A stretch of 64,000 nucleotides of DNA from a virus: positions 23,770-87,769 of the IMG/VR virus record IMGVR_UViG_3300017706_001340; one strand, given 5' to 3'. Positions 1 to 64,000 of the stretch are shown one piece after another. A program made the position numbers and the translations under genes. The notes under the pieces were generated by a model, which had not been told where the DNA came from, made no database searches, and was given only the letters and a program-made list of their open reading frames with translations. Within the stretch, counting starts at the first letter, position 1, and each line of letters starts with the position of its first letter.

Positions 1-1
1 C

Positions 2-277
2 ATGTCAAATACATCAAAAGATGAGAATCTCATGCTAGAGCAGGCTTATATGAGAGTATATGAAGCTAGAATGTCTCAAATTGAGTCTGATGAGAGTGTG
101 GAGGAATCTACTGACGAGGAGCCTGAGAATGACAAGATGGCAGCAGCAGTAGCAGTACAGCAAACAGCTGATCAGGTTGAGGATGAAGGTGGAGAGATGA
201 CTCAGCAACTACAGAAGGCCAAGCAAGAGTCTGAAAAGTATGTAAGTAAGAAGATAAGTCAGTTCAAGAAGGACTAA
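2..277 (+). CDS. Acidic hypothetical protein, possible capsid-internal protein (at window edge)
   Basis: 91-aa ORF; N-terminal LEQAYMRVYEA resembles the motif shared by other late acidic proteins here. Confidence 0.55.
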   Translation: MSNTSKDENLMLEQAYMRVYEARMSQIESDESVEESTDEEPENDKMAAAVAVQQTADQVEDEGGEMTQQLQKAKQESEKYVSKKISQFKKD

Positions 278-1602
278 CGACTAAACTTCAGACTTCCTAG
301 TATTTGATTCACTGGTGCAAATATCCCGGTGAACTTATAGATCTTAGGTTTAGATTCACCGTCAGGTGTGTATGTAAACGTCAAACCTTCACTTGGAACG
401 ATAGTGTCTAAACCACCTAACTTATTTATCATCTTCAATTCATGTTGTAGTTTGTTCATCAACGTTAAATCACCAGTGGCTTCAATCTCTCTTGTGACTT
501 CTTCAATGCCTTGTCTTATCTCTTGTACAGCCTGTGAGGGATTCAATGTGAGAAGATTTGATATGTTGTTGTTCAACTCAACACCAAGCTTGAGAAACAA
601 CGCTTTGAGCGGTTCGATCATGTTATTGTAGTGTGTTTTGAGTTCCCCACTACGTTCTGTTGCACTTATCCATTGTAAAAATTCTTTGTTATCAACAATG
701 CCTTTAAGTTCCGGCAACCGGCTAAGTGCTACGGAATTGTAATCGCTAGGCCTTTTACCGGGTGTCAACATCTTGAATGCCCACCTATATGCGATACGTC
801 TCAACGTGTCTTGTTGAACATTGTAACCAAATTCACGCGCTCCATTCTGTATAACATTACTCATGTAACTAATCCAGTAGTCTCCTACGTTGTTGCTAGG
901 ATTTAGTTTATGCTCACCCATCAAACCACTCAGTATACCCATATACTCACCTATAGTTGTCTCAAAATTCTTAACTTCCGGTAACTTCATCAGCGGCATG
1001 CTCGTGATTGTGAACTTATCTTGTACGTGTTGGTTGATTTGCTCGATCATACCCGCCATCATGCGACCATATTCATTGAAATCACCATCTAAAGTGTTGC
1101 CATCCTCGTCATATTCTCGGAAGTTGTGTAAAACGATCAATTCATGGTTATAAGGTATGACATTCACTGTGGCTGGCCAGATTATCTCAATGTTGATCCA
1201 CCTCTTACCGTCCGCGAACAACAATTGCTTCTGTCGGTCGCTCAAAGCCATGATAGCCTTCTCTAGATCCTTGGCTGCAAACGTGAACGCTTCTTTCACG
1301 TTGTCATTTGGATGTTCTCTGAAGAATTCTGCAATACCTTTGGCTCCTTTTATAGCATTCTTACCAAAACCACGATAATGTCCTTTGTTACGAGCGAATA
1401 TCACGCGATTGGCACGATGACTCACTGCTAATGCTTGTCCATCGGTCTTTTCTTTGATCTCTCCTTTGATTCCACCGGTCAACGCTTGTTTGATGATGCG
1501 TTGCAGGTCTTCGAACTGTAAAGTGTAGTCTTCATGCACGTTCATCATATGGCCATATGCTCCACCTTCTTCTATCACTCTGTTGTATGTTTTAAAGTTC
1601 AT
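274..1602 (-). CDS. Putative covalent nucleotidyltransferase (RNA/DNA ligase-like fold)
   Basis: Motif I-like EKTDG, motif IV-like SEGLTF, motif V-like IYKFTG in the correct order; N-terminus MNFKTYNRVIEEGG. Confidence 0.55.
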   Translation of the reverse strand: MNFKTYNRVIEEGGAYGHMMNVHEDYTLQFEDLQRIIKQALTGGIKGEIKEKTDGQALAVSHRANRVIFARNKGHYRGFGKNAIKGAKGIAEFFREHPNDNVKEAFTFAAKDLEKAIMALSDRQKQLLFADGKRWINIEIIWPATVNVIPYNHELIVLHNFREYDEDGNTLDGDFNEYGRMMAGMIEQINQHVQDKFTITSMPLMKLPEVKNFETTIGEYMGILSGLMGEHKLNPSNNVGDYWISYMSNVIQNGAREFGYNVQQDTLRRIAYRWAFKMLTPGKRPSDYNSVALSRLPELKGIVDNKEFLQWISATERSGELKTHYNNMIEPLKALFLKLGVELNNNISNLLTLNPSQAVQEIRQGIEEVTREIEATGDLTLMNKLQHELKMINKLGGLDTIVPSEGLTFTYTPDGESKPKIYKFTGIFAPVNQILGSLKFSR

Positions 1603-1603
1603 A

Positions 1604-3127
1604 TTAATTGTTCAATTTAATTGTAAATCCACCGCGACCAGGCTCTCCTGCTTTTGCACCAGTGCTAGCACCAATACTGGCATTAGACATCATGAGAACA
1701 TTAAACGATTTGATTATATTATCACCATATTCACCGGTCATCATTATTGGATATGTATTAGTATAATTCTCACCGGGTACCTCACACATAGCCGCATAAT
1801 ACGCAAAACCCTCCCCGACAGCATAATCAGTGATCTGTATCGCACTTAATATACGTAGACCTATCTCTGTGATATGTGTTTGTTGTAATAAGTTATCATG
1901 AATAGCTGAACTCAGTATCTTCGATATTGCACCCTTCGCGTGTTTTGGTTTACTTGCCATCTTAGAGAGATCAGTAGCGAACGCATCTTGCATCTTTATA
2001 TCTGTTTTAAATTTTCCGAACCCATATTTTGATAGATATGATGAGACGAAGCCAGCACCACCGGTCGGCTTTGATGTACGTGCTCTTAGTGTCTGTTTTA
2101 TATGATTAAATTTTGTTATGATATCTTCTAGATAACCAGCTTTATTATCTACTGTTATTGCATCTATAATCTTCTTGTTATACACTGCCTTGCCACTCAG
2201 TTGTTTAGTTATTTTGTTAGCCATCTCTAGAATCTCATTATAGTCACAGCAATCAGATCGCTGTAATCGTTGATATATATCCTTCAGTGCTTTATGTACA
2301 TCCGGTCTGCTTATATAATATGGGTATATGACTGAAATATCTCGCATCACCGGTTCTTTTATCTCAAATATCTCATTCTGTCTTCTATTTTCATCAAAAT
2401 CATCAAAGCGCTTCATGGCGTATTGTTCGAACTTACTTGCTCTACCAACCACATCTCCCTTCCCGGGTCTGCCGGCAGCTCCCTTAAGCTCGATCTCTTC
2501 ACCAGAAGGTAACATCAAGTCACCCTTCTTCGGGTTAACAGCTTCAGTAAATAAAGTTATTAACACTTCTCCATTACCTACACCGACATTACCTTCAGTG
2601 AAATCACTCAACGTGACTAGTGATTTTATAAACTCTGCATTACCAATCATCGGCATTGTACTTCCAAACTGATTTACAAATTCATTTATAATATTGAATC
2701 TATCTCTCTTCACAAGTGATGTTAAAACCCTGAGATTCTTGCTCTCTTTTAACTCAATAAGCTCATTAACCTCACTGGTTATTCTATCCACGATACTTAT
2801 ATCGTTGAGATCATACATCGTATCTAACCTCTCAACTATTCCTGTAGGTATAGCCTTCCTTGCAGTAGCACTATCCCATCCACCAGACGCACACCACCTA
2901 CCAAACAACTCCGGTAATCTCAACTTAGCTTCATGCGCACCTAATGATAATGCTAAGTCATCTGACATTTTAAATTTTTGATCTTTTAATTTAGAATCAT
3001 CAAACTTTATTCCAATTGTAGCCTCGTTTATCACCTTATTATATAGGTCCTGTTCACGCTCTGGGTGAGTGTAATGATCTCCTCTTCTAATACCTTTGTA
3101 GATATCACCTATCTCCCTGTTACTCAT
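1604..3127 (-). CDS. Hypothetical protein with PD-(D/E)XK nuclease-like core
   Basis: VGNGEVLITLF...KGDLMLPSGEEIELKG gives the E...D...ExK spacing. Confidence 0.5.
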   Translation of the reverse strand: MSNREIGDIYKGIRRGDHYTHPEREQDLYNKVINEATIGIKFDDSKLKDQKFKMSDDLALSLGAHEAKLRLPELFGRWCASGGWDSATARKAIPTGIVERLDTMYDLNDISIVDRITSEVNELIELKESKNLRVLTSLVKRDRFNIINEFVNQFGSTMPMIGNAEFIKSLVTLSDFTEGNVGVGNGEVLITLFTEAVNPKKGDLMLPSGEEIELKGAAGRPGKGDVVGRASKFEQYAMKRFDDFDENRRQNEIFEIKEPVMRDISVIYPYYISRPDVHKALKDIYQRLQRSDCCDYNEILEMANKITKQLSGKAVYNKKIIDAITVDNKAGYLEDIITKFNHIKQTLRARTSKPTGGAGFVSSYLSKYGFGKFKTDIKMQDAFATDLSKMASKPKHAKGAISKILSSAIHDNLLQQTHITEIGLRILSAIQITDYAVGEGFAYYAAMCEVPGENYTNTYPIMMTGEYGDNIIKSFNVLMMSNASIGASTGAKAGEPGRGGFTIKLNN

Positions 3128-3474
3128 TACAAATCAGTATGTGGGTAGTTGTTGCGCACGATGCGACTCACAAGTTCTTGCATCTCTTCTAAATTTTCTG
3201 TATCAACTAACTTGGTCAATCTAGCATAGTCAACATCATCGATGTGTTTGGGAGCCATGATCAAAGCTTTTCTGATCATCTCCACATAATCCACCTTGAG
3301 TTTAGCTGTATCATCATCACCAGTATCGTCACTCGGTATGGCACTCTCTGGTGTCTCAGTATCTGGTGGTGGAGCAATTCCTTCCGCATCCGGTTCTGCA
3401 GGAGGTGGTGGTACTGCTTCTTCTTCGCTCAGTACACTCAATTTTTCTTCGATCATTGATAAAAATTTGTCCAT
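3127..3474 (-). CDS. Acidic Pro-rich hypothetical protein (late)
   Basis: 115-aa ORF; ATAAATA 5 nt upstream of ATG. Confidence 0.75.
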   Translation of the reverse strand: MDKFLSMIEEKLSVLSEEEAVPPPPAEPDAEGIAPPPDTETPESAIPSDDTGDDDTAKLKVDYVEMIRKALIMAPKHIDDVDYARLTKLVDTENLEEMQELVSRIVRNNYPHTDL

Positions 3475-3479
3475 AATAG

Positions 3480-3486
3480 TATTTAT
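3480..3486 (-). promoter_or_regulatory. T4-type late promoter
   Basis: ATAAATA 5 nt upstream of ATG 3474. Confidence 0.65.
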
Positions 3487-4115
3487 TGTGTGTTGTGTCT
3501 TTTAGCCCGAGACTTTTCTATGTCACCATATTTATTCATGTCATTACCATACAATTGCTTGTCTGTATCATCCATTCGACTCCATTGTGAAGCCACCCAT
3601 TGATCCCACTTGGCTTGATCACCAGTACCAGGTCTTCCTTGTTGTTGATTGACTGTCGTTTGTATTCCCATCTGACCTTTCTGGAAGCCTGGTTTGCTAG
3701 CTATCTGTTGTTCAGCGTGGTATCGTTGATAACCTTTGAGACCTTTCCAGTGTCTATATTTTGGGTCACTGTTTGCTTGTTGTTCCAACTCTTGATTCAC
3801 ATCTGACCACTGTGCTTGTTGAGCTGATGTCATCCGTTCCCATGAGCTCTTGATTCTCTTCTCAAGATCAATATCACCCTGATTTTTACCAACATCACCT
3901 AGATCTTGAACAACACCACCCACAGCACCAATCATGTCTCCACTCTTGGCTTTGTCCTTAAACGCCTTGCCAGCAGCAGCGAATTGATTCATACCACGCC
4001 CGATATTACCCATTATACCCTCTAGTATTTGATTGGTAGTGACTCGAGGAGCAGTTTCTTCTGGGAAATATTTTCCTTTCATCTCATGTAGTTTATTGAT
4101 GAACTTGTCAGTCAT
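3483..4115 (-). CDS. Gln/Gly-rich hypothetical protein (late)
   Basis: 210-aa ORF with two W.RM...Q motifs; TATAAATA upstream. Confidence 0.75.
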   Translation of the reverse strand: MTDKFINKLHEMKGKYFPEETAPRVTTNQILEGIMGNIGRGMNQFAAAGKAFKDKAKSGDMIGAVGGVVQDLGDVGKNQGDIDLEKRIKSSWERMTSAQQAQWSDVNQELEQQANSDPKYRHWKGLKGYQRYHAEQQIASKPGFQKGQMGIQTTVNQQQGRPGTGDQAKWDQWVASQWSRMDDTDKQLYGNDMNKYGDIEKSRAKRHNTQ

Positions 4116-4119
4116 ACTG

Positions 4120-4707: not shown

Positions 4708-4723
4708 GACTAATTATCAACAA

Positions 4724-5221: not shown

Positions 5222-5228
5222 ACTGTAT

Positions 5229-5501: not shown

Positions 5502-5534
5502 TGAATGTATACTATTATTTATGGAGTCACTTGC

Positions 5535-10664: not shown

Positions 10665-10668
10665 AAAT

Positions 10669-12267: not shown

Positions 12268-12282
12268 ATGTCAAGTATTTAG

Positions 12283-12311: not shown

Positions 12312-12317
12312 ATAGCT

Positions 12318-14882: not shown

Positions 14883-14885
14883 CAG

Positions 14886-17944: not shown

Positions 17945-17953
17945 ATGTGTTAT

Positions 17954-18667
17954 ATGGAAAAGTGTATTGTACCGATCAGTGGAGGTTTAGACTCAACAAC
18001 CATCTTATACATGGCCAAAGCAAGAAACATGCAAATACATGCAGTTAGTTTCAATTACGGTCAACGACACATGGACAGTGAATTAGCGTGTGCACAACAT
18101 CATGTGAATAAAGTGGGTGTGGAGAGTTGGAAAGTTCTAGATATCACCTTCTTCAAGGAAATTGCAAACACGAGCTCATTGACAAATAGCGATATAGATG
18201 TTGCTGATGCACGTGATGTTGTGGGTGATCCTCAGACAGTTAATTATGTCCCAAACCGCAACATGATGATGTTGAGTATATGTGCTGCATATGCTGAAAG
18301 TCTTCAAGCTGAAACTGTGTTTCACGGAGCTGCTCTTGTTGATAGCCAGGCTGGTTTCTGGGATGGTAGTGTAGAGTTCTTAGAGTATATAAACAATCTA
18401 CTGTCCTTGAATCGCCGAGATCGAGTCAAGGTGGAGTGTCCTTTGATTGAGCTATCTAAAGAGCAAATTATACACAAGGCTGTGTCACTTGGAGTTGATG
18501 TCTCTAAAACATGGACGTGTTACAGAGGTGGCGAACGACCATGTGGTTATTGTACGGCTTGTAGTTCTCGTATCGCTGGATTCATGTCTGCTGGCTATAT
18601 AGATCCATTGGATTATCAGAGAACAGACATACCATGGAGTGGTCAGCAACCAATATCAGCACTATAG
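17954..18667 (+). CDS. queC: QueC-family PP-loop ATPase (7-cyano-7-deazaguanine synthase-like)
   Basis: SGGLDS, FNYGQRH, VPNRN, TWTCY...PCGYCTAC; canonical YPDC replaced by FWDG. Confidence 0.88.
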   Translation: MEKCIVPISGGLDSTTILYMAKARNMQIHAVSFNYGQRHMDSELACAQHHVNKVGVESWKVLDITFFKEIANTSSLTNSDIDVADARDVVGDPQTVNYVPNRNMMMLSICAAYAESLQAETVFHGAALVDSQAGFWDGSVEFLEYINNLLSLNRRDRVKVECPLIELSKEQIIHKAVSLGVDVSKTWTCYRGGERPCGYCTACSSRIAGFMSAGYIDPLDYQRTDIPWSGQQPISAL

Positions 18668-18670
18668 TAT

Positions 18671-19396
18671 ATGTGTGGTATATTTGGTAGTTTCAACTTC
18701 CGGCGGTTCGAACAGCTGTACGAAGCAAACCGGAAGCGTGGTGACTTTGCGGTTGGTACGATGTATATAACTAAAAATGCATCCCCAGGTATGGCGAAAA
18801 ATACCTGGTTGAGAAAGAAGCAAGGTATAGTTGATCTCACTAGTCATTATTCTTTTAAGAATGATTACGATCAATACCTGGGTCACACACAAGCACCAAC
18901 AAGTATTAACCGTGAATTTAGTCCGGAGACAACACATCCATTTGATAGTATACATTATCAAGTAGCACATAACGGTGTACTGAGCAACCATAAGCAGCTT
19001 GGAGAGGATCTACTAGACGCGTGGTGGAGGGACGATTGTGTTGATAGTGAGATCATACCAGGATTATTATCCGTCAATGTTGAGTTTGATGAAGATATCA
19101 TATTGAGCTATCAAAATGATACCGGAAAAACTGAGGATGTGTTGACAGTTGAGAAAACATGCAGCATGCTGAAGGGTACATTTGGTTTGTGGGTGTACAG
19201 TAAACTAACAGGTGATACATTTATCGTTCGCAACGGTTGCACGTTATTTGGAAACATTGAATCTGGTGATTTTAGTAGTGTGCCTATCGCTGGTATTTGT
19301 GAAGAACCTCTGAAGGAAGGTGTAGTGTACTGCGTGACATGTGAAGGGTTAACAGAGTGTGGAGAGTTCGAATCAAGTAGTCCATTTTTTTTATGA
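18671..19396 (+). CDS. Class II (Ntn) glutamine amidotransferase
   Basis: N-terminal MCGIFG, RG, GHT, HPF, HNG, DSE. Confidence 0.88.
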   Translation: MCGIFGSFNFRRFEQLYEANRKRGDFAVGTMYITKNASPGMAKNTWLRKKQGIVDLTSHYSFKNDYDQYLGHTQAPTSINREFSPETTHPFDSIHYQVAHNGVLSNHKQLGEDLLDAWWRDDCVDSEIIPGLLSVNVEFDEDIILSYQNDTGKTEDVLTVEKTCSMLKGTFGLWVYSKLTGDTFIVRNGCTLFGNIESGDFSSVPIAGICEEPLKEGVVYCVTCEGLTECGEFESSSPFFL

Positions 19397-20076
19397 ATAA
19401 GAACAAGAAAATTTTAATTGTAACATGCTCGAAAGATGACGGTAAAAAGTCACAGCTAGTCCAATCACTAGATGCAATACGAGATGACATATCATTAATA
19501 ATAAACGCAAACAACAAGGCAGGATTGTCAGAAACTTACAACAGACAGCTAAAGCCGGAAAATCTCATAAAGCATGACATTGTGTTATTTGTACATGATG
19601 ATGTGTTCATTGATGATGTCAAGCTAAGAGGTAAATTGTATGTAGCGATGGAGTCATTAAAGTATGATATTGTAGGTCTAGCTGGTGCTAGTAAGATGAA
19701 GATAGGAAACCCGGCGTTATGGCATCAAATGTCGCCCCGGGAATCATGGAGCGGTGCCGTGTCACACCCTGTAGGTGATAAGCAATTGAATATAACTAGT
19801 TTCGGACCATGGCCAGCAAGATGTTTAGTATTGGACGGATTGTTTCTTGCAGTCAACTTGGCGAGAGTATTGGAGATTGGATGGAGATTTAACGAAGATT
19901 ATAAATATCATCATTATGATATAGCTAGTTGTTTAGATGCGAACAAAGTTAAGCTCAAGATGGGAACATATCCAATCAATGTGACTCACAGCAGCCCCGG
20001 ACTGAGAGACATCAACGACGAATCATTCCAAAGATCACAACAAACATTTATACGTAATTATTCAGATGTCAGTTAA
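19393..20076 (+). CDS. GT-A glycosyltransferase-like protein (GT2-related)
   Basis: YN...FVHDDV, IVGLAG, LDGLFLA, HHYD..SCL. Confidence 0.75.
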   Translation: MNKNKKILIVTCSKDDGKKSQLVQSLDAIRDDISLIINANNKAGLSETYNRQLKPENLIKHDIVLFVHDDVFIDDVKLRGKLYVAMESLKYDIVGLAGASKMKIGNPALWHQMSPRESWSGAVSHPVGDKQLNITSFGPWPARCLVLDGLFLAVNLARVLEIGWRFNEDYKYHHYDIASCLDANKVKLKMGTYPINVTHSSPGLRDINDESFQRSQQTFIRNYSDVS

Positions 20077-21394
20077 TCAATTAGATAGTGAGTTCTATGA
20101 AACGATCATCGCATACAACATGTTGTTGGATGAACCATATCTCGCGAGTATAATTGACCATCTTGATGAAAGATTCTTCGAGAATAAAAATATAGCTAAT
20201 ATTGTTAAGATAATAACAGAGTTTTATAATCGCAGAAGTGTTGCTCCGACACTGACTGAGATCAAGAGCTATCTTATCGATGATAAACTCAAGATGAGTT
20301 TCAAATCTGTTGTTAGTATGTTTGATGAGATTGATAAGAACTTTAATAAGACTGAATTGTATGAAAACACAGAGAAATTTTTAAAAGAAAAGTCTGTGTA
20401 CCATACACTATTAGAGGTCGCAGATCAAACAGGTGATGAGATGAACACTGGTGAGATACTACATAAATTTGAGAAAGCTTGTAGTGTGACATTAGCCGCT
20501 GATTTAGGTTTAGATTATATTGATGAGATAGATAGACACATAAACGACTTGAAGACGATCGATAGTACAATCTCATGCGGATGGCCGTGGTTGGATAGAA
20601 AAATGGATGGTGGTTTCTTGGAACAAGGTCGAGCAATATATGTTTTCGCTGGTGAGACAAATATCGGTAAGAGTATATTTCTTGGTAACATCGCGAAAAA
20701 TATTGCCGATCAAGGGAAAACAGTACTGTTGATAAGCTTGGAGATGAGTGAGCTGGTTTACGCTAAAAGAATTACTACTAATTTGACACAGATACCAATA
20801 AGAGATTTACACTCCCGTACAGATGATATCGAGTCAGCGGTAAAACAATACAAACAACGTAACAGTAAATCCAAAGTCATCGTAAAGGAGTTTCCTCCGA
20901 GTACAGTAACATGCAAGCATCTCAAGGGATATATAAAAAAATTAACTGACCGAGGTGTGAAGTTAGATGCTATTGTGGTAGATTACGTAAATTTACTTAA
21001 AAGTGACCTAGGTACAAACAGCTATGAGCGGATAAAATATGCTACTGAAGAACTGCGAGCTTTAAGTTATGTGTTTGAGTGTCCCGTCATAACAGCAACA
21101 CAATTGAATCGCTCTGGTTATAGTGAGGTCAATCCAGGGTTGGATACCGTTGGAGAGAGTTATGGTTTAGCAGCAACAGCAGATGCAATCTTTAGTATAT
21201 GGAGAGAGGAAGAAGATATTGAAGCTGGTGTACTAAAATTAGGAGTCATGAAGAATAGATTTGGTGAGAATTACGGTAGTGTCATAATGGAGATTGATTA
21301 CGATACATTGACACTAAAGGAAGCTAGTGAACAGGTACAAAATATCGACATGACAGACACGATAAACAGCCTGGATCTACTCAATAACAGTTGA
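20066..21394 (+). CDS. gp41: Replicative DnaB-like helicase gp41
   Basis: GETNIGKS, SLEM, VVDY, ATQLNR, KNRFG. Confidence 0.95.
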   Translation: MSVNQLDSEFYETIIAYNMLLDEPYLASIIDHLDERFFENKNIANIVKIITEFYNRRSVAPTLTEIKSYLIDDKLKMSFKSVVSMFDEIDKNFNKTELYENTEKFLKEKSVYHTLLEVADQTGDEMNTGEILHKFEKACSVTLAADLGLDYIDEIDRHINDLKTIDSTISCGWPWLDRKMDGGFLEQGRAIYVFAGETNIGKSIFLGNIAKNIADQGKTVLLISLEMSELVYAKRITTNLTQIPIRDLHSRTDDIESAVKQYKQRNSKSKVIVKEFPPSTVTCKHLKGYIKKLTDRGVKLDAIVVDYVNLLKSDLGTNSYERIKYATEELRALSYVFECPVITATQLNRSGYSEVNPGLDTVGESYGLAATADAIFSIWREEEDIEAGVLKLGVMKNRFGENYGSVIMEIDYDTLTLKEASEQVQNIDMTDTINSLDLLNNS

Positions 21395-21427
21395 TTGTTT
21401 TTTTACTGTTAATAAATAAATTAAATA

Positions 21428-22327
21428 GTGAAAAAGATAGCTGTATTTACTGATTGCGACCTGGATGGACTTAGCTGTATGTCTGTTTTCCGATGGTTTA
21501 CAAACACAAAGATGGATCACCAGATATGTTCTCAATCCAACTTCAGAAAAACATTTACCCGATGGTGTCAGAGAAATCGACCAGAGACGTTTGATAAGAT
21601 TTACATCTTTGATCTTGATGTGTCACAATCTAATATTGACCTTGTTGATCATCATAATTTCACTATAATAGATCACCATGACACACATGTGGCTAACAAG
21701 GATAAGTATAAAAATGCAAGTGTGATATTGAAGGACTATAGTAGTTGTTGTAAGCTGATATATCACCTCATGGTCAAGAAGTATCCAGATAAAGTTTTAG
21801 ATGATACTCAACGATTATTAGTTCTACTAGCAGATGATTATGATAGTTATGAGTTGAAATTAAAAGACTCGTATAGTCTGAATGTGATTGTGTGGAATTA
21901 TGTTGGAGATAGAGCAGAACAATTTCAACGAGATTTTGGTGACGGATTCAAGGGATTTAACGAATCACACTTGAACATGATACACTTGAACAACAAACAG
22001 GTCAATCGCATATTGTCGGAGCTTGAGATATACAGTGGAGAGATACCTATAAATGGTAGAATGTATAAAATATATGCCACGATGGCAGACAAGAGTCTGA
22101 ACGAGGTAGCACACCATGTAATCAACAGCTATGATTGTGAGATTTGTTTGGTGATGAATTTGAGAACAAAAAGGGTTAGCTTCAGAAAGAATAAAGAAAA
22201 AATTCCAGACCTGGATTTAGGTAAGCTGGCTCAAAACATTGCAGAAGGTGGAGGTCATGTACATTCATCCGGAGGGCAAATAACAGATAATATTTTAACA
22301 GTAACAAAAATGTTACAACCAGTATAA
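21428..22327 (+). CDS. DHH/DHHA1 phosphoesterase
   Basis: DCDLDG, FDL, IDHH, DDYD, GGGH; GTG start. Confidence 0.88.
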   Translation: MKKIAVFTDCDLDGLSCMSVFRWFTNTKMDHQICSQSNFRKTFTRWCQRNRPETFDKIYIFDLDVSQSNIDLVDHHNFTIIDHHDTHVANKDKYKNASVILKDYSSCCKLIYHLMVKKYPDKVLDDTQRLLVLLADDYDSYELKLKDSYSLNVIVWNYVGDRAEQFQRDFGDGFKGFNESHLNMIHLNNKQVNRILSELEIYSGEIPINGRMYKIYATMADKSLNEVAHHVINSYDCEICLVMNLRTKRVSFRKNKEKIPDLDLGKLAQNIAEGGGHVHSSGGQITDNILTVTKMLQPV

Positions 22328-55889: not shown

Positions 55890-58800
55890 ATGGCAACATA
55901 CTCACAGTTAGTTGGATCAAGCTACACGGATGTTGTAGTACCGATCACATCAGATAATGGATTAGGTACCATAGATACATGCAAAACAACACTAACCGGA
56001 TACACACTACCCCAAACACAATTCACATTCACAGCAGAGTTATCCTCGCTAGATAACACTTATATCGGTGCTAGTATGGATAAATTGATCTGGGATCTCG
56101 GGGACGGTACATACAGCACCGGTGTGAGTGTGACAAAACACTACCCATACCCAGGTGAATTTCAAATCACAACAATTTTTACAGATCAAAACGGAGTGAC
56201 ACATCGCAACAGATTGTCACAAACAATCCGAGTGTTGAATTATATACCAGACAGTCTAGTGTGGTACACACCCACTATTGCTGATCCATTTGGTGGTAGA
56301 CCAGAACGAGCTGTGTGTGGTGCACCTAGTGAAGATTTATCAATATACAGAATGAACAGCTGGCAGAGCTGGCCGATGGTTAGCGGTGATGGTGGGTATT
56401 ATATCAATCTATATTCCACTGGTAGTAAGAGTCGACCACTATCCACCAGGCAGTATGAATCAAACCCGGATACACATTTCATTCCTAGTTGGAGATTCGT
56501 GGAGAATAAAGAGAGTAAGTTGCCGGTTGAGCGTGTGCAAACTGATAATGAGTTTGTATACGTCAAGGTGGTGGACAGCGAACTTGTGCGGGTCCCTAGT
56601 GATGATATAGATGCAATTTTCGCCGGGACCTCCGGCATGATGACAGTCAATTATATTGACGATAACCCGAACAGATTGACAAGTGCAAGAAGTGTGGAGG
56701 CATCAAAGAATAACGCTGGTGCTACACAATCTAACACCAATGTAACTACAGAAGAAGCGGAGATGATGAATTTAGGATTGGAGGATAGAGACATAATATT
56801 ATACGCATCATTTGATACATCCAAATTCCCGGTTTCCAATGGTGACAGAGACATTGATAAGTTTGAGTTGATGAAGAGTAACTATTTTCAGGTATATGAA
56901 ACTCAAAAGGTTGGTTTACCTATACAGATAAAATTTAATAGTCCGAGAGAGTTGTCGTTAACCACCACCGGAATACATGAAGATGGCTTTCAGATATCTG
57001 GTAACAAATTTGTAAACTCACCGCTGCCGCTTGTGGTGAGCACGATGGATTTATCAAGCAACACACTCAACACCGAGGAATTGGCACCACTATCTTCACG
57101 ATGGACTGCCGAGAGTCAGCACTTCTCTGGTGGCGACATAACCACCGATGTGCTCACTGCGCAGGGGTTCGTAACATTGTACCTATCCGGTAATGACAGT
57201 AGCTTCACACAACTCAAATCTGTGTATCGAACAGATGATGATTTCAAGGTGTGGGATATAGGTCAGATCCTTCCGGAGCAAGTAGAGAACAAACAATTGA
57301 GAATACTCCTGGCCGACAGGCGTGACAATACATTACTAACCACACCATTTGAGGATAACACACGGAACCGAATAGTATCATTATTGTACAGTGAGATACA
57401 TCCTGATCAGCAAGAGGAGCTAATCTATACAAATATATCGGACCACAGTTACCCGGGTGGCAAGCCTCGTGAGTGGCAAACTCGTGCCGGTTTGAAGTAT
57501 TACGGATTTGTTTTACCGACGTCAAACTTCACAGAATCAGGATACGTTGATATGGAACTCAAAGACGCAACAGAGAAGTTCGATCACACCGGCAGTTGGC
57601 TCACATATGTTAATTTTAATGTCGAGGAGAGTAGTTTTGACTTTGATAAAACAAAATATAGATTTTACGCACATACACTGATCGATCCACCAGAAACTTT
57701 TACATACGATGTGGCATATTACTATATAACCAACCCTACTAATGATAGACTCTGGCAGATAAAGCCTGTGTATCATCGGGAGTATAGTTATGGTGATGAT
57801 GGGTTCACTCAGACATACACACCACCCATATCAACACAAACTCCAGGTAACAGCGGCATGTATGGTTTGGCGGTTGATACACTTGGTGATGTGATTGCTG
57901 TTGATGGTGACACGGACAAGGTCATCAGATACTGGCGCAACAGAACCAGCAGATCAGAACATGCGCTATCTGATATTTTACCGGAAGATGTAACATGTAA
58001 TCATTGGCCTAAAGATCCAGATGCATATGGATACACTCCTAGTAGTGTGTCATTGGATAAAAAATTAGATTATTGGGTCACTTTGTATGACGCTGTGTCA
58101 ACAGTAAAATTTTCCGGTGAGACCAATCTACCCATTGCTTATGCTGTACCATCCACCCCCAATTATCTAGCAGATGTCCGCACAACATCTCCATCCTCAC
58201 ACTGGACAATAGATCCTGAATATCAAATGAATATTGTGGGTGGACGACCCGGGGAGTACGGTGAGAATATAATCAATCCATCGATGGTAGAGACTTGTGT
58301 CAATAATGATATTGTCGTGACATATACAAACCCTCTGTGTAGCTTCATAGCCAGATACGACTCAACCGGACAGTTGAAGAACAAATATGAATTTCCTGGT
58401 GAGGATCGATATTTCTCCGGAGATGTATGTGTTGATGTTAGTGATCATGTGTGGGCGATAACTGAGAGTACCGGGTTGACTTTTGATGGTCAACCAGATG
58501 ATCAGGTGGCAAGCATGCTATATGCATTTGATGAGGAACTGACACTCAGATTTGTTGTCAGTTCACTCGAGGGTACAGATTATCAGGACATGCTCAAACC
58601 GGCTCCACCAAAACGTGAAGAGATTGATATCATTATAAACATGGAACAAGAGTATAATTATGATACTCAAGAGTACTATGAAACTGCAATTCTAGTTGAT
58701 GGTTATGGTGACAGTGTAAATCCACAATTGACATTATATGAGGGTAATGTATATCATTTTGAAAATCAGTATTACAACAGAGGCAAACACAATTTAAAAT

Positions 58801-61361
58801 TTCAATATATAATACCAGAAAATTCAACATTACCAGCTAGTGCAGTTCCATTCGAGTATGCAAAATCTGGAGATGTAATCACACAGGATGTATCTGGTAA
58901 CGATTCTTCTAGAGTCTCAATTGAGATCACTGATGAGACACCTAAGAGGTTTTTGTATGTTGATAGAAATTACCCTAACACCATCGCGCTAGTTGTAAAC
59001 GTGATACCTAAACCCAAGATTGACAGCCGGCAAGCAGATACATTCAAATATATGAACAACGCTAGCTTCATCACACCTGATGTTAAAAACAACATTTGGA
59101 TATCATGGGGGAAGAGATTCTGCTCGAGATACAACACTATGAAGAACGAGATAGACATGACTGTTGCTGTTGGCTCAGCATATGATGACCCAAGATATCA
59201 TCCACTGTCTGCTGAAACTCATGACCGAAGAGACAACGCCGGGAGGAGATCGGTGGTTGAAGGTTTAGCGATGGACACCGCGAACAATCTACTGATCATA
59301 AACAACAACGAAAAAGTGTTATATTCACTAAACTCCGATCAACCTACGTTGAGTTCATTTATAAAGATAGAGGATTATCAGATACCATATGAAGAGTTTA
59401 ACTGGGTGGAGAGCATCTCTAGTGATGATGAGGCCACAAGAGATGATTTTATGTTGTATCCTGAGAGTCATATGACTAAGGAACAGATCAAGGTGTTTTT
59501 AAACAACGTCAATTTCTCCGGGACGGAAGAAGAGAAAATGCAAGCGTTCATCAACTATAATAACACGATGACGATATCCGGAGGAGATAGTAAATTCCGC
59601 ACTGCCCATGGAGCTAACCCTGTATCTGCTACTGGATTTGAGTCTGAAATTTGCGCGTTTGGAGACTGGACTGGTTTCCGGTGGATCAACAAATATGATG
59701 ATAGAGCAGTGGCAAGTGATGAGACCACAGGGTTTGTAAGTGTCACTGGATCATCAAATGAATTTGATTTGATTAAATCCACAGGCACAAATGAAATAGT
59801 TAAGGTTAATGAAGATATTGATTTCGCGGGTGTGTTGAGATCATATATGAAGCAACCAAGTCTGGTGAATAGCCCTAAGTTGTATGAAGAGTTATTAACA
59901 GCAGTTTTCGGTACAAACACGTCATCAGTCAACTCTTTAGGTAAGCGAGTATATGAAAGAATTTCAAATTATATCGAAAACACAGTTGATATAGACACAT
60001 GCACTATAACAGCACTACACGGCCTGGCGGAGATGGTCAATTATAACCTAACCGGTGTTGGTTACACCTTCCCGGCAGACATGCAAAGATTATTAGACAT
60101 ACTGTCAATAAGTTACACACGACTGAGAGGAACAGCTGTAACTGAAGAACTAGATTTTGAGAAGTATGGCAATTGGACGCAACAGACTGCGGGTGTGAAT
60201 TTAGGTCATGAACTGTTGTTTGTATTTGATTATAGAGCAGACCATGGCTATTCAACTGGTGATTATGTTAAGTATGGTAAAAATTATTATGAGTGTGTAG
60301 AGAGCATATCAAATGTAACACCCAGCAAACTGTCTGAATACTGGATACATCACCCACGTGGTGAGATTAGAGCTATAACCCCATCGCGTGGTAGAATAGT
60401 ATATAATAAGATGTCTGAAGATCAACAACTAGAATATGATGGTTTTGAGGACTTTTATCAGCAAGAGGTCAACTTACGAATACAATTGATACAAAATCTA
60501 GATCTGGCGGTGGATAAAAAGGTAGTGTTACATAACGAGACTACAGGTGAATTTAATCTCGTACAAGGTCGGACGATCCGCTTGGAAGATGGCCGGACAT
60601 ACAAGATGACGCTGCATGATTCTAATCATATCAAAATAACGACACCTAATCTGTCTCGACCACTACACCCCGAGCATGTCGCGACAGTTGATGATTATGA
60701 ACCACTGTATACTGAAACAGATGATGGTGTTATCACTGTTATAGGTCAAGATAATCACAACATGACAATAGTTTTGTTCAGGAACCGGAATTATAGATTT
60801 GAAGTTGAGAGTTTAGACCACCCTATCATAATAACAGAATCACCCGGACCTAGCGCTGTACCGACAACATATGTAAATGATCAATTTGTAGAACTAGGTA
60901 AAATAAACATAAGCACCATGGATGACCCGGTACATGGTTTGCTTCCAACAAAACTATATTATCAAAGCACAAAGGATCACACCATATCTGGAACTATCAT
61001 AATAAAAGATGTAGATGCCACTATTGGTTACTCAACACTGTATGATGGATTGACATCATATTCATTGAACCTGTCGGTTAGTGGCCATCGAGAATTGGAT
61101 CAACTTGGATGGGGTATGGATTTTCCTGCTAATGGAAGTGCATGGCAGTATTATAGTCTGTTTGAATATGTTGAACCAACTGTAGATCAAGTAAAATATA
61201 TAAACAATGTTATAGACTGGGACAGCAATCAAACAACAGTCAAGCAAGACACACCATTTGCGTCTTGGTATGAAGAGGGTGGTATCGCACAAACTATGAT
61301 AGAAAAAACATTGAGAGAAGGTTTAGGTATGATGGATGGTATGGACTCAATAAGTAAATGA
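55890..61361 (+). CDS. Large multidomain baseplate protein (gp7/P2 gpI-like) with PKD, propeller-like and CBM-like modules
   Basis: PKD WDLGDG...HYPYPG.F; DIDTC...L..LAEMV motif; YSTGDYVKY....Y.C...P...YW; follows gp6. Confidence 0.65.
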   Translation: MATYSQLVGSSYTDVVVPITSDNGLGTIDTCKTTLTGYTLPQTQFTFTAELSSLDNTYIGASMDKLIWDLGDGTYSTGVSVTKHYPYPGEFQITTIFTDQNGVTHRNRLSQTIRVLNYIPDSLVWYTPTIADPFGGRPERAVCGAPSEDLSIYRMNSWQSWPMVSGDGGYYINLYSTGSKSRPLSTRQYESNPDTHFIPSWRFVENKESKLPVERVQTDNEFVYVKVVDSELVRVPSDDIDAIFAGTSGMMTVNYIDDNPNRLTSARSVEASKNNAGATQSNTNVTTEEAEMMNLGLEDRDIILYASFDTSKFPVSNGDRDIDKFELMKSNYFQVYETQKVGLPIQIKFNSPRELSLTTTGIHEDGFQISGNKFVNSPLPLVVSTMDLSSNTLNTEELAPLSSRWTAESQHFSGGDITTDVLTAQGFVTLYLSGNDSSFTQLKSVYRTDDDFKVWDIGQILPEQVENKQLRILLADRRDNTLLTTPFEDNTRNRIVSLLYSEIHPDQQEELIYTNISDHSYPGGKPREWQTRAGLKYYGFVLPTSNFTESGYVDMELKDATEKFDHTGSWLTYVNFNVEESSFDFDKTKYRFYAHTLIDPPETFTYDVAYYYITNPTNDRLWQIKPVYHREYSYGDDGFTQTYTPPISTQTPGNSGMYGLAVDTLGDVIAVDGDTDKVIRYWRNRTSRSEHALSDILPEDVTCNHWPKDPDAYGYTPSSVSLDKKLDYWVTLYDAVSTVKFSGETNLPIAYAVPSTPNYLADVRTTSPSSHWTIDPEYQMNIVGGRPGEYGENIINPSMVETCVNNDIVVTYTNPLCSFIARYDSTGQLKNKYEFPGEDRYFSGDVCVDVSDHVWAITESTGLTFDGQPDDQVASMLYAFDEELTLRFVVSSLEGTDYQDMLKPAPPKREEIDIIINMEQEYNYDTQEYYETAILVDGYGDSVNPQLTLYEGNVYHFENQYYNRGKHNLKFQYIIPENSTLPASAVPFEYAKSGDVITQDVSGNDSSRVSIEITDETPKRFLYVDRNYPNTIALVVNVIPKPKIDSRQADTFKYMNNASFITPDVKNNIWISWGKRFCSRYNTMKNEIDMTVAVGSAYDDPRYHPLSAETHDRRDNAGRRSVVEGLAMDTANNLLIINNNEKVLYSLNSDQPTLSSFIKIEDYQIPYEEFNWVESISSDDEATRDDFMLYPESHMTKEQIKVFLNNVNFSGTEEEKMQAFINYNNTMTISGGDSKFRTAHGANPVSATGFESEICAFGDWTGFRWINKYDDRAVASDETTGFVSVTGSSNEFDLIKSTGTNEIVKVNEDIDFAGVLRSYMKQPSLVNSPKLYEELLTAVFGTNTSSVNSLGKRVYERISNYIENTVDIDTCTITALHGLAEMVNYNLTGVGYTFPADMQRLLDILSISYTRLRGTAVTEELDFEKYGNWTQQTAGVNLGHELLFVFDYRADHGYSTGDYVKYGKNYYECVESISNVTPSKLSEYWIHHPRGEIRAITPSRGRIVYNKMSEDQQLEYDGFEDFYQQEVNLRIQLIQNLDLAVDKKVVLHNETTGEFNLVQGRTIRLEDGRTYKMTLHDSNHIKITTPNLSRPLHPEHVATVDDYEPLYTETDDGVITVIGQDNHNMTIVLFRNRNYRFEVESLDHPIIITESPGPSAVPTTYVNDQFVELGKINISTMDDPVHGLLPTKLYYQSTKDHTISGTIIIKDVDATIGYSTLYDGLTSYSLNLSVSGHRELDQLGWGMDFPANGSAWQYYSLFEYVEPTVDQVKYINNVIDWDSNQTTVKQDTPFASWYEEGGIAQTMIEKTLREGLGMMDGMDSISK

Positions 61362-61362
61362 T

Positions 61363-64000
61363 ATGACCTATGATTTAACAAGTCTAACGACGTTTGTACC
61401 GGAAAACAGTATAATCAATGAGATTCATGGTGGTGATGCAATCAAGCCTTATAGTTATACACAGTGGCTCGAGCAGTCAAACTTCACAGGAAACCAAAAT
61501 CGAAACCACTCAACAGAATACAACAAATATATACGTGAATGGAATGATCGTGTGATTAGAAGGAAAACAAAGTACAGCAAGCAAGACAGATACAAGTTGT
61601 TGATTAAGAATATATCATTAAATTATACCACAGATGAAGAGAAGAGGTTTCTCACAAACATTGACTACGATAACGAGCGACATGTTGCTGCAGCAACCAC
61701 CTTTTTCGCGAAAAAAATTCAAGAAATATCCACGTATTATTCAGCTGCTCGACAAAACATAAAACAATCTAGTACCCGTGCTGGAACAACAGGATCAATA
61801 ACATCAATTGAAAGATTGATATATAATGAAATACCTAAGCTTGTTTCTGAGAGGAGTATTATAGGCAATCAAAAAGTAGAATCAATTAGAGTAAGTAAGA
61901 CCAAAGTTAGTGTAAATGACTTGTATGAAGTTGATGCACATACACAAACAAAAATACCGATTGTATTTGACAAGGATATATTCATAGATATACAACAATC
62001 GATCGAAAATCTGGTTAATGAGTGTCTGCCAGTATTAGAAATATCTCCAGGAATATCCTTGACATTGAGTAATCAAATTGAAGCTACCGACACAACTATA
62101 AATCTACTTGATTACGAAAACTTCATCGATTATACAAAATCTCCTGACAATTTAAACATTTATAATGTAGAGAAGTATCTACCTAAATTAACAGGAGCTG
62201 ATATGTACACTATTTCAGATGGTGAGTTGAGTTTGTTGTTTGTCGGAGAAAATAAACATAGAAACATTTTACACACCGGTGGACCACATGTGATCACGTC
62301 TAGTTCTAAGAGTTATAAGACTAGGTCTCAACTGGGAAGATTGTTTGTACCGAGTAATATGGGCGTGTTGTCTTATTATAGTCACAAGCCAATTACAACC
62401 ATTTCAACGGATACTGATATACAGGCATTACCAGACCCGTACAGAATAAACACAACCAACGTCACGTTGATTGAAGATAATGTTGAATGGGTGAAGGCTT
62501 CATCAGCTAATGACGGATTGGCTGGAGATATAGTGGATGCCAACAGATTACCTAAATTCTTTTCATATAGGTCTGATGAAGAGACCAAGTTGTACACCGG
62601 ATTGGGAACCAGCAGGTCCTATGATCCTGTTGGGTTCTTCACAGGTTATGCCAATTCTAATTGGGCCAATGCAGATGTATTTTCGGTGGATGCAGCGAAC
62701 ATATATGATATTGATTCTAGACAGGATACGTTGATGATAGGTGATCATACTGTCACGAGTTGGAGTTCAGATATATATGGCAATCAATATGCTTTATACA
62801 AGAAAACACCAACAAAAAATCCGAGCGCATTCATATTTGGAGAATCAGAAGAAGATTATGAAACTAATAGTGTTTGTGTGATAATTGATGGTGGTAATAC
62901 ATTGAAACCACGTCCAAAATATTGGTCTGATGGTGTTTCATTCAAGATATATGAAGGTGGTCGGAGATGGGGTATAGATTCTAAAATAGAGCAACAGATA
63001 AACATGACACTATTTGAAGACCTCCGGCAAATGATACGGATTGTAAATTCCGACGGTACAACACGCGAGGTGATTGAAGAGAAGAACGCGTGGGACTTCC
63101 AACCAAACAAAACGAGAACGGAAATGGTTTCCACGCGGTTGACGTATCATGGATTTAAGAAAAAAGGTCTGGAGCCAGTGTATGACGAGCAAGCGTATGG
63201 TGGATTGTTCACTGATCAGACATGTGGGCAGATAGACCCGAGCAACCGAGAGTGTGTGATTAGAGACAACTATGCGTTCAGTACGTTTAGTGATGTGATC
63301 AGTGCATTGAGTGGTGAGAACTATTATGTATCTGCATCTGAACCCCTCACCGGGAGAAAGGATGCGTTTGAAGTGTATTTCAACACTGGTTATAGTGAAG
63401 ATGTAACATTTTCTGACACCACAGTAAATAGTGCCACTGAATTGTTTGTGAGTGAGGATGTTGATGCTGGTAATTTCACTGGTAGTAATTGTTTTGATGA
63501 GCTACAAGCTGAGTTTGTTTATGAGATTGAAAGTGACACACAATTTTATAACAAACCGTTGAATATAAGCAGAACCAAATTGACAGAAACGGAAGATGTT
63601 GAAGATATTGACACAACACAATACACAAGAGATCAACTGGGCGGTGAAATATACTACAGATCGTATAATGATGCGATCATCAAACCACTCACTGAAATAT
63701 TAGCCGAGCTAGCAGTGGATTTTGGAGATTCAACCGGAACTGATCGAGAAAGATTCATCAAGCAGGTTGATGGAGGTGTGTTGAACATGGAGATGTTTTT
63801 TGATGTGATATACATACAGACCGAAGAATTTATATATCTTGAAAAGGTTAAATTTGATGAAGATACCAACAAGATGCTCAAGAGTGATTATCCGAGTGTG
63901 TTAGTTCGTACAGAAATTGGTCCTGTTTCAAGACATGTGCAACCCATATATAATAAGAGAACACATGAACTAGTCTATGGTCAGATAATGAATGATGAGA
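61363..64000 (+). CDS. Large virion structural protein, truncated at window end (absent from the ORF track)
   Basis: ATG 1 nt after the previous stop; reads MTYDLTSLTTFVPENSIINEIHGG... and appears open to the window edge. Confidence 0.75.
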   Translation, partial: MTYDLTSLTTFVPENSIINEIHGGDAIKPYSYTQWLEQSNFTGNQNRNHSTEYNKYIREWNDRVIRRKTKYSKQDRYKLLIKNISLNYTTDEEKRFLTNIDYDNERHVAAATTFFAKKIQEISTYYSAARQNIKQSSTRAGTTGSITSIERLIYNEIPKLVSERSIIGNQKVESIRVSKTKVSVNDLYEVDAHTQTKIPIVFDKDIFIDIQQSIENLVNECLPVLEISPGISLTLSNQIEATDTTINLLDYENFIDYTKSPDNLNIYNVEKYLPKLTGADMYTISDGELSLLFVGENKHRNILHTGGPHVITSSSKSYKTRSQLGRLFVPSNMGVLSYYSHKPITTISTDTDIQALPDPYRINTTNVTLIEDNVEWVKASSANDGLAGDIVDANRLPKFFSYRSDEETKLYTGLGTSRSYDPVGFFTGYANSNWANADVFSVDAANIYDIDSRQDTLMIGDHTVTSWSSDIYGNQYALYKKTPTKNPSAFIFGESEEDYETNSVCVIIDGGNTLKPRPKYWSDGVSFKIYEGGRRWGIDSKIEQQINMTLFEDLRQMIRIVNSDGTTREVIEEKNAWDFQPNKTRTEMVSTRLTYHGFKKKGLEPVYDEQAYGGLFTDQTCGQIDPSNRECVIRDNYAFSTFSDVISALSGENYYVSASEPLTGRKDAFEVYFNTGYSEDVTFSDTTVNSATELFVSEDVDAGNFTGSNCFDELQAEFVYEIESDTQFYNKPLNISRTKLTETEDVEDIDTTQYTRDQLGGEIYYRSYNDAIIKPLTEILAELAVDFGDSTGTDRERFIKQVDGGVLNMEMFFDVIYIQTEEFIYLEKVKFDEDTNKMLKSDYPSVLVRTEIGPVSRHVQPIYNKRTHELVYGQIMNDE

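Follow-up and report, generated by a model that had tools for sequence, protein, structure and literature searches.

Results

The window, by which we mean the whole stretch of 64,000 nt analyzed here, comes from an uncultured marine T4-like phage and carries CCGG as a dispersed field over its entire length (1..64000, unstranded; 196 sites, 3.1 per kb, evaluated by counts, Markov models, and synonymous shuffles). Its genes include a late operon (274-3474) and a PDDEXK_15 nuclease (4724-5221), both of which, like FolE2, are specific to the CCGG-rich clade described below, and a plus-strand cassette of QueC-like, amidotransferase-like, and glycosyltransferase-like genes (17945..20076; 8 CCGG), with QueC assigned by PHROG match. 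The longest CCGG-free gap (19997..22269, unstranded, 2272 bp) lies over a gp41-like helicase gene and is within the range of random placement, while the densest gene is a plus-strand ORF of 1823 aa (55890..61361) with 31 CCGG, or 5.7 per kb, against 9.3 expected from composition and 12.8 from the synonymous shuffle. The preliminary description had counted 14 CCGG by hand in 1..3000 (unstranded; 4.7 per kb, 4.5 sites expected from composition) and 14 in 55980-58000, inside the 1823-aa ORF, and both counts were exact; its estimate of about 3-5 each of GGCC, GCGC, and CGCG in 1-3000 agrees with our recount of 4, 3, and 5. It had set the GC content too low, at about 36% with roughly 1 CCGG per kb expected; the actual value is 38.5%, which puts the naive expectation at 1.4 per kb.

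Over the whole window, CCGG (n = 196) far outnumbered GGCC (41), GCGC (36), and CGCG (56). The expected count was 88 under a zero-order model of base composition, 53 under a first-order model of dinucleotides, and 111 under the maximal-order Markov model, where the z-score of 10.8 ranked first among all 256 4-mers. Synonymous-codon shuffles, done inside genes with protein sequence and per-gene codon usage held constant, gave 110.3 +/- 7.5 against 193 observed (z 11.0); the excess thus survived the very comparison that had been set beforehand as its refutation. For the whole contig (G000), the same shuffle gave 232 versus 141, and this ratio of 1.64 was the top observed/expected value of any 4-mer. 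Karlin's tau was only 1.17 in G000 (rank 5 of 136) and 1.21 in the relative G001, below the customary cut-off of 1.23, a comparison in which small differences between our formula and Rusinov's Kr are possible. Tau corrects also for gapped words that are themselves inflated by CCGG, and the over-representation, initially called strong, is therefore strong against simple nulls but moderate against this most conservative one.

The excess was present in every codon phase. With hyphens marking codon boundaries, the synonymous shuffle of the window gave 71 CCG-G versus 56.9, 91 nCC-GGn versus 42.3, and 31 nnC-CGG versus 11.1, and the corresponding enrichments in the contig were 1.19x, 1.98x, and 2.72x. 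CCGG alone among NCGN words was raised in all three phases, bearing out the earlier claim that this is not a single codon or dipeptide effect. Something therefore favors this 4-mer, or preserves it, at the level of DNA, within a phage group in which avoidance is otherwise as common as expected for phages; the other XC-GY codon junctions were all avoided in the contig. At the third base of NCN codons, C was used before GG in 28% of cases in G000 and 36% in G001 versus 9-13% elsewhere, a gain drawn from A and G, not T, that corresponds to a log-odds pressure of about 1.4 to 1.5. Putative non-coding DNA across the clade held 18 CCGG versus 6.3 expected in 7.4 kb, with many of these stretches resembling small ORFs.

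Gaps between sites were exponential (CV 1.1), indicating random spacing, and a search of the window revealed no periodicity or clustering. No extended flanking motif was found around the sites, and the flanks otherwise follow base composition, with a mild preference for ACCGGT/TCCGGA and a deficit of GCCGGN, including depletion of GCCGGC. Observed counts exceeded expected ones in 58 of 84 genes in G000 and 71 of 83 in G001, with replication, structural, early, and late genes alike. These two contigs are 79% identical, and in identical amino-acid contexts they have 19 CCGG positions in common versus 18.4 expected, a sharing ratio of 1.03 compared with 1.19 for all words. CCGG sites thus turn over between relatives while their density is held. 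Of the suggestion that the word is positively selected or protected, the part that stands is that the 4-mer is favored or preserved in the DNA as such; protection of individual sites was not seen. A sugar island (G000 8831-15589) missing from G001 was as rich as the remainder (11 CCGG versus 5.6 expected), with no amelioration signal of the kind a recent island might show. Contigs of runs X2-X5 were >99% identical, and none of their 28 variant places in 20 kb lay in or created a CCGG, where the 0.35 expected leaves the comparison no power.

In the polymerase tree, the phage falls in an 11-leaf clade (SH-aLRT 99) of marine and estuarine contigs, and CCGG reached a z-score of at least 4.8 in 11 of 11 members, with a pooled z of +27 over ten independent contigs. 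Sister clades were neutral or purged of the word, with 0 of 32 expected sites in L041; the synonymous-shuffle ratio was 1.66 in G001, 0.78 in the complete sister genome G002, and 0.17 in G003, and T4 had no excess (z 1.0). Palindromes of 4 bp, taken as a class, stood at 1.08x in the CCGG-rich clade, 0.97x in the other relatives, and 0.88x in T4, so short palindromes are not avoided in this clade, which would fit restriction-resistant, modified DNA. Megablast of window positions 1-20000 found nothing in a phage collection, and among cultured phages the best polymerase match was about 31% identical. The metagenome collection yielded no near-identical contigs; the closest was 91% identical over part of the polymerase.

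The agents proposed in the preliminary description were a phage methyltransferase or the QueC/glycosyltransferase system. Homologues of all three cassette genes occur in CCGG-rich relatives and equally in CCGG-poor or CCGG-free ones, including L026, L029, and L041 with 0 CCGG in 12-22 kb, and G002 and G003 with few; the trait is not tied to the cassette, and the second proposal is not supported. For the first, the clade DNA examined was 88 + 98 kb, from genomes that CheckV puts at 41-46% complete, and no methylase match was obtained there. Specifically, Pfam searches at this completeness gave no match to a C5 methylase (PF00145) in G000-G003 and G005, or to N4/N6 methylases or Vsr (PF03852) in G000, and methylase motif IV was absent from the G000 and G001 proteins at hand. 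TGT/DpdA (PF01702) likewise had no match in G000-G003 or G005, the complete G002 among them, in a search that a divergent DpdA could escape. Clade-specific proteins of 442, 507, and 517 aa had no informative match in PHROG, Pfam, or PDB sequences. CCGG may yet be a modification target or self-recognition mark, as had been supposed, but nothing in these data points to it.

A lead on the host that is new here comes from FolE2. The phage protein is 77-85% identical to FolE2 of three marine Pirellulaceae metagenome-assembled genomes (MAGs; G006, G007, and G008) and 60-66% to the next bacteria, and the tree joins phage and MAGs in one clade (support 99); no phage genes were found in the flanks of the MAG genes. 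In 160-kb samples, CCGG ranked second in over-representation among 4-mers, both in G006 (z 6.4) and in G007 (z 7.2), with synonymous-shuffle ratios of 1.24 (z 8.1) and 1.34 (z 12) and an NCC-GG choice of 33-41% versus 22-25%; G008 had no excess (0.94x). Similar ratios occurred in only 2 of 32 other Pirellulaceae genomes, and 0 of 62 loci from other phyla exceeded a ratio of 1.26 with z >2. G006 and G007, being closely related, represent roughly a single lineage. Their enrichment was confined to phases 0 and 1, with no phase-2 excess, and the bias was stronger in the phage both as a ratio and as log-odds of NCC-GG choice (1.4-1.5, against 0.44 in G006, 0.90 in G007, and 0.10 in G008). Between the phage and the MAGs, the overall profiles of tetranucleotides and of palindromes correlated only weakly (r 0.2-0.34) and did not single these MAGs out. 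On the enzyme side, C5 methylases (PF00145) had no match in G006-G008, MAGs of unknown completeness, nor did Vsr (PF03852) in G006-G008, G013, and G028; all MAGs carry N4/N6 methylases whose specificity is not readable from Pfam matches, and since these occur in CCGG-rich and CCGG-neutral MAGs alike, they provide no contrast. A DNA comparison of window positions 1-20000 with five Pirellulaceae genomes gave no spacer-like match, the sole match being a low-complexity (APAPE)n repeat. Marine Pirellulaceae (Planctomycetota) are thus a candidate host, suggested by one shared gene, FolE2.

Discussion

A single clade of uncultured marine T4-like phages bears the CCGG excess as a true genome signature, which is real in this phage and its closest relatives, acts at the DNA level, and is about 1.7- to 2.2-fold in size; it stands as a solid compositional observation. 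The explanation we tentatively prefer is a weak genome-wide pressure at the DNA level, probably tied to the host cell. Such a pressure would act on the DNA word itself, throughout the genome, and not on codons or particular sites, with sites gained and lost freely while density is maintained. Its source would be the cell where the phage replicates, and it could take the form of mutation or repair biased by sequence context, or of a host system directed at CCGG. The phage bias may exceed that of the MAGs because the clade does not avoid short palindromes, as restriction-resistant, modified DNA would allow. In favor of a host link, two of the three FolE2-linked Pirellulaceae MAGs share a CCGG-specific bias, more weakly; against it, the link is a single gene, G008 has no excess, and searches on the phage and the MAG side pinpointed no responsible enzyme. 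Since T4-like phages rely on polymerase and repair proteins of their own for replication, a mutational bias imposed by the host would not be the first thing to expect.

An unlikely alternative is that the phage itself encodes a system that modifies or reads DNA at CCGG, in which each added site, as an extra protected or marked patch, is slightly beneficial, and selection therefore lifts density everywhere with positions unfixed. This agrees with a DNA-level effect in all phases, with a trait that belongs to a phage clade and surpasses the bias of the candidate-host MAGs, and with turnover at constant density, as selection on number and not place predicts. The tolerance of short palindromes suggests DNA that already resists restriction, the available sequence covers less than half of each clade genome, and the clade-specific late operon, PDDEXK_15 nuclease, and FolE2 have no assigned function. 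However, no methylase, TGT/DpdA, or Vsr was found in the clade DNA examined, the QueC cassette does not co-vary with the trait, the clade-specific proteins lack informative Pfam or PDB matches, and two candidate-host MAGs carry the same bias with no phage genes nearby.

The textbook route to palindrome excess is the very-short-patch (VSP) repair that acts at Dcm sites of E. coli, in which the palindrome targeted by a methylase becomes over-represented through biased T:G repair. Its effect on CCWGG and CTAG was reportedly described by Bhagwat and McClelland in 1992 and by Merkl et al. in 1992. A methylation-dependent repair "ratchet" has been proposed to explain highly iterated palindromes, rCCGGy of Oscillatoria among them (Elhai 2015, PMC4390886). 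No other mechanism, established or published, is known to raise a short palindrome across a whole genome. A methylase paired with such repair could convert near-CCGG words to CCGG, consistent with random placement, site turnover, and the mild preference for ACCGGT; we nevertheless consider this quite improbable here. No C5 methylase or Vsr was matched in the phage DNA or the searched MAGs, and the VSP footprint is missing, as the transition neighbors CTGG/CCAG were enriched instead of depleted in the pooled clade (944 versus 764, 1.24x, z +7.9), and CTAG, which VSP would deplete, stood at 1.41x (z +12.8). The C gained at NCN-GG comes from A and G, not T, and GCCGGC is depleted, so the word in excess is not rCCGGy.

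It is very doubtful that a translational codon-pair preference common to phage and host, with pairs such as ACC-GGT and CCG-GAN favored by the ribosome and tRNA pool, produces CCGG as a by-product. Codon pairs in general are strongly biased in this genome, with several abundant words at z 11-17 under the synonymous shuffle, and the MAG enrichment in phases 0 and 1 only would suit such a cause. Yet three distinct codon-pair classes, including nnC-CGG at 2.7x, would have to converge on one 4-mer while other XC-GY junctions are avoided, highly expressed structural genes are not more affected (sheath 1.25x), and sister phages with similar proteins span 0.17x to 0.78x. A statistical or compositional artefact, from a wrong null model or chance, is for practical purposes refuted, as Karlin's tau of 1.17-1.21 falls short of the usual cut-off but four other nulls yield z 10-14 in two contigs, all ten independent clade contigs reproduce the excess, and T4 and the sister clades are without it.

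More speculatively, and with little probability attached, CCGG could be a positively maintained DNA mark, written or read by an undescribed system common to marine Pirellulaceae and this one phage clade, in which the phage would gain from each extra site, sisters facing CCGG-cutting hosts would have erased the word, and the rise of CTAG and CTGG/CCAG would be a decay halo of hypermutable, modified inner cytosines. If so, one 4-mer would be both mark and target inside a single phage group.

Short palindromes are usually purged from phage genomes, and the few enriched cases, CCGG in Helicobacter and the HIP words of cyanobacteria, are unexplained. Here one phage group lies at both extremes, with one clade at 1.7-2.5x and sister clades at zero, a natural contrast in which the driver of palindrome gain can be sought. 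Should a modification or repair system lie behind the excess, CCGG density would serve as an inexpensive marker of that system, readable from sequence alone; should the excess derive from the host, the word would help to predict hosts for an uncultured lineage of T4-like phages, one that possibly infects planctomycetes. To our knowledge, few planctomycete phages have been described.

One of the nearest precedents is Helicobacter, where CCGG is over-represented with a Kr of 1.4-1.5, for which the authors give no biological explanation (Rusinov et al. 2015, PMC4687349). There, too, CCGG exceeds expectation, in genomes of about 39% GC and at a ratio of the same order, but those genomes carry CCGG restriction-modification, whereas here the genome is that of a phage, tau is 1.17-1.21, no cognate system was found, and sister phages purge the word. 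The HIP words of cyanobacteria, namely HIP1 (GCGATCGC) and alternates such as rCCGGy in Oscillatoria PCC 10802 (Elhai 2015, PMC4390886), are likewise short palindromes raised genome-wide, in all reading phases and in a lineage-specific manner (here 11 of 11 clade members), and a methylation-linked repair drive has been proposed for them (PMC4390886). Their excess is far greater, with a passage in PMC5861425 putting HIP1 at 15- to 300-fold, and they have a cognate methylase; the excess in this phage, 1.6-2.2x across four nulls, is below such order-of-magnitude hyper-abundance, and it comes with no methylase found in partial genomes, depleted GCCGGC, and positions that are not kept. Dcm/Vsr VSP repair in E. 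coli also leaves a palindrome over-represented but depletes T-containing neighbors and CTAG, unlike the enriched CTGG/CCAG and CTAG seen here, where neither Vsr nor a C5 methylase was matched. As in the oligonucleotide similarity used for k-mer host prediction, two of three candidate MAGs share the CCGG bias and the NCC-GG choice, although k-mer usage as a whole correlates weakly, the bias is more pronounced in the phage, and the host is a candidate only. Lastly, restriction-site avoidance in phages (Rusinov et al. 2018, PMC6286503) is mirrored in the sister clades, which are under clear restriction-type selection on CCGG (0 of 32 in L041, 0.17x in G003), whereas in the clade described here the sign is opposite and 4-bp palindromes stand at 1.08x.

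CCGG excess in the window and contig

The preliminary description had reported an abundance of the palindrome CCGG, and its hand counts were correct to the site (14 in window positions 1-3000 and 14 in 55980-58000). Across the window, which has a GC content of 38.5%, CCGG occurs 196 times, against 41 for GGCC, 36 for GCGC, and 56 for CGCG, whereas 88 sites are expected from base composition and 53 from dinucleotides. A maximal-order Markov model predicted 111 sites (z 10.8), placing CCGG at the top of the 256 words in the window. The excess also survived the test that had been proposed to refute it, a synonymous-codon shuffle within each gene that preserves every protein and the per-gene codon usage (193 observed in the window genes vs 110.3 ± 7.5, z 11.0). 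For the whole contig (G000), this shuffle gave 141 sites against the 232 observed, a ratio of 1.64 that is the largest of any 4-mer (the next being 1.37), and whole-codon permutation gave 106. Karlin's tau is the most conservative measure, as it divides also by gapped words inflated by CCGG itself, and was 1.17 (rank 5 of 136), below the customary cut-off of 1.23. As the null models were exceeded and the shuffle was withstood, the excess is genuine and about two-fold, not extreme. The shuffle of the contig also showed TTGA, TGAT, and GATG to be strongly in excess on coding strands (z 12-17), which produces many off-frame TGA triplets and is a general codon-pair bias separate from CCGG.

The phage and its clade

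G000 is an 87.8-kb IMG/VR contig with a CheckV completeness of 41%, of which the window forms bases 23770-87769. T4-type replication and tail genes are encoded in the window, including a gp43 polymerase (12318-14882), a gp46-like SbcC, a gp41-like helicase, and a tail sheath (35959-39063). The lineage is distant from all cultured phages: the closest cultured polymerase match is ~31% identical, and a megablast search with window 1-20000 against the phage collection gave no match. Strains more than 99% identical to window 1-20000 recur in four runs (X2-X5) of a single 2022 marine study, and near-identical strains (>99%) were seen in several further studies as well. In one run X4 contig, 4 bases are missing at window position 2205, inside a 507-amino-acid ORF (1604-3127) whose frame would thereby shift. 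The minus strand at 4724-5221 encodes a 165-amino-acid PDDEXK_15 "phage putative endonuclease" (Pfam E 2e-24), possibly a nuclease acting on junctions or mismatches; its detected homologues are confined to clade members and L016, with none seen in the sister G003 or the complete sister G002.

Searching viral and metagenome contigs by polymerase yielded ~100 loci, and the polymerase tree placed the window in an 11-leaf clade (SH-aLRT 99) whose contigs, as far as can be judged from their titles, are marine or estuarine. All 11 members are rich in CCGG (z of at least 4.8, 1.5-3.9 times composition). The 98-kb relative G001 (polymerase identity 79%) holds 423 sites against 169 expected from composition, and 405 against 243.8 by synonymous shuffle. 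Outside the clade, CCGG is neutral or purged, with 0.78x in G002 (184.5 kb), 0.17x in G003, no site against 32 expected in L041, where CpG itself is at 0.32, and no excess in T4 (z 1.0). A freshwater sister clade (L026, L029, L041, L098, and G003, the latter comprising L053-L056) has erased CCGG (0-2 sites vs 18-32 expected), with CpG at 0.31-0.35 of expectation and GATC and CATG strongly depleted. In G003, the final 10 kb hold 17 of the 24 CCGG sites and may be a recent island, and the otherwise CCGG-poor G002 (L057-L066) has a 5-kb bin at ~50-55 kb with 17 sites, against 0-7 in other bins, which suggests an island of different origin. In two more distant loci, L044 and L047 (polymerase identity 42%), GTAC has almost vanished (5 sites against 37-44 expected, z about -6 to -7) and GATC is also depleted.

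We pooled ten clade contigs (G000, G001, L010, L014, L015, L069, L070, L078, L093, and L099; 317 kb), which together contain 1030 CCGG sites against 552 (z +27). CTAG (1.41x by Markov model, pooled z +12.8), CGCG (1.42x), and CCAG/CTGG (1.24x) were raised alongside CCGG in all ten, a joint rise absent from other relatives. CTAG is usually under-represented in bacteria and phages. Either a degenerate CYRG preference or a decay halo left by hypermutable inner cytosines could account for the rise in CTAG and CTGG/CCAG. Taken together, 4-bp palindromes reach 1.08x in the clade, compared with 0.97x among the other relatives and 0.88x for T4, indicating that the usual avoidance of short palindromes has been lost in the clade; 6-bp palindromes are neutral.

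Codon phase, placement, and turnover of sites

CCGG is the sole NCGN word elevated in every codon phase (CCG|G 1.19x, nCC|GGn 1.98x, and nnC|CGG, or phase 2, 2.72x), whereas codon junctions of the C|G type are otherwise avoided. The third base of NCN codons is C in 28% of cases before GG vs 9-13% elsewhere, and the share of CGG among Arg codons is 15% after C vs 4-7% otherwise. No extended motif was found around the sites beyond a mild preference for ACCGGT/TCCGGA and a deficit of GCCGGN. Gaps between sites are exponential (CV 1.0-1.1), and observed counts exceed expectation in 58 of 84 genes, structural and replication genes alike, with the sheath gene unremarkable. A sugar-gene island missing from the nearest relative is as rich in CCGG as the rest of the contig, and stretches scored as non-coding hold 18 sites vs 6.3 expected, although many of them look coding.

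The 62 orthologues common to G000 and G001 are nearly saturated at four-fold sites (39% identical vs 32.5% expected by codon usage). At codon pairs encoding the same two residues in both, 19 CCGG places are shared vs 18.4 expected from density alone, a ratio of 1.03, compared with 1.19 for all words and 1.38 for other NCGN words. Density is thus inherited and position is not, which speaks against the earlier proposal that existing sites are simply protected from mutation, and against site-specific functions of CCGG. A pressure acting globally is favored instead, which could be selection on the number of sites or a drive from mutation or repair.

A possible planctomycete host

A phage gene for FolE2 (GTP cyclohydrolase I type 2; G000 21889-22929) lies 1.9 kb upstream of the window; it is found in G001, not in G002 or G003, and the observation also covers L050:6325-7470 (minus strand) and L131-L133. 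Its product shares 77-85% identity with FolE2 from three marine Pirellulaceae MAGs, whereas the next bacterial sequences reach 60-66%, and phage and MAG copies form a single clade (support 99). This kinship indicates gene exchange, and a planctomycete is a possible host of this uncultured T4-like clade; the MAG FolE2 loci held no further phage genes.

In 160-kb samples, CCGG ranked second among over-represented 4-mers in two of the MAGs (z 6.4 and 7.2), and GCGC, GGCC, and CCGA were depleted there as in the phage. By synonymous shuffle, CCGG reached 1.24x (z 8.1) and 1.34x (z 12) in these two, with NCC|GG codon choice as in the phage, and the third MAG showed no excess (0.94x). A ratio of 1.2 was reached by only 2 of 32 other genomes of the family, none of 62 loci of other phyla exceeded 1.26 with z above 2, and marine low-GC Flavobacteriales had 0.4-0.9 of composition. 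A weakness of this lead is that it comes from one gene, FolE2, and that the two MAGs with the excess are closely related; a phase-2 excess is also lacking in the MAGs, whole-profile correlations with the phage are weak, and no spacer-like DNA matches were found between window 1-20000 and five Pirellulaceae genomes. A 15-nt tandem repeat encoding (APAPE)n (17088-17169, minus strand, inside a 517-amino-acid ORF at 16370-17923) is 76-82% identical to similar repeats, frequently at the ends of contigs, in each of the five Pirellulaceae genomes searched, but it is weak evidence of kinship as low-complexity sequence.

Source of the pressure

A weak pressure towards CCGG that acts on the DNA across the whole genome is consistent with the data, its log-odds being ~1.4-1.5 for the phage, 0.9 for MAG G007, and 0.44 for MAG G006. 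Our leading explanation, which we hold tentatively, is that it would come from a cellular environment common to the phage and a planctomycete host, and would show its full strength in a phage clade where palindromes are no longer avoided. That CCGG is instead a mark encoded by the phage seems unlikely. Of the agents proposed earlier, the QueC/GT system was not supported, as homologues of the QueC-like, amidotransferase-like, and glycosyltransferase-like genes (window 17945-20076) occur equally in CCGG-rich and CCGG-free relatives, and no phage methyltransferase was found in the clade DNA searched (less than half of each genome). Neither C5 methylase (PF00145) nor TGT/DpdA (PF01702) had a match in G000-G003 or G005, where under half of each clade genome was covered; N4/N6 methylase (PF01555), Vsr, and ThyA-like hydroxymethylase had none in G000 (41% complete), and methylase motif IV was not found in proteins of G000 and G001 (each under half of a genome).

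We give somewhat less credence to a ratchet of methylase plus repair, since the footprint of a drive by very-short-patch (VSP) repair is missing: T-containing neighbors are enriched, not depleted, and the C gained before GG replaces A and G rather than T. Codon-pair selection is the least probable source.

Comparison with known systems

The closest published parallels to the phage excess are Helicobacter CCGG, the cyanobacterial highly iterated palindromes, and the Dcm/Vsr effect known from E. coli. The CCGG excess of Helicobacter was given no explanation (PMC4687349), and the cyanobacterial palindromes include rCCGGy (PMC4390886). The phage case shows neither the hyper-abundance nor the VSP footprint of known palindrome-excess systems, and no cognate methylase was found in the less than half of each clade genome that was searched, but it shares with them an excess that is lineage-wide and present in all codon phases.
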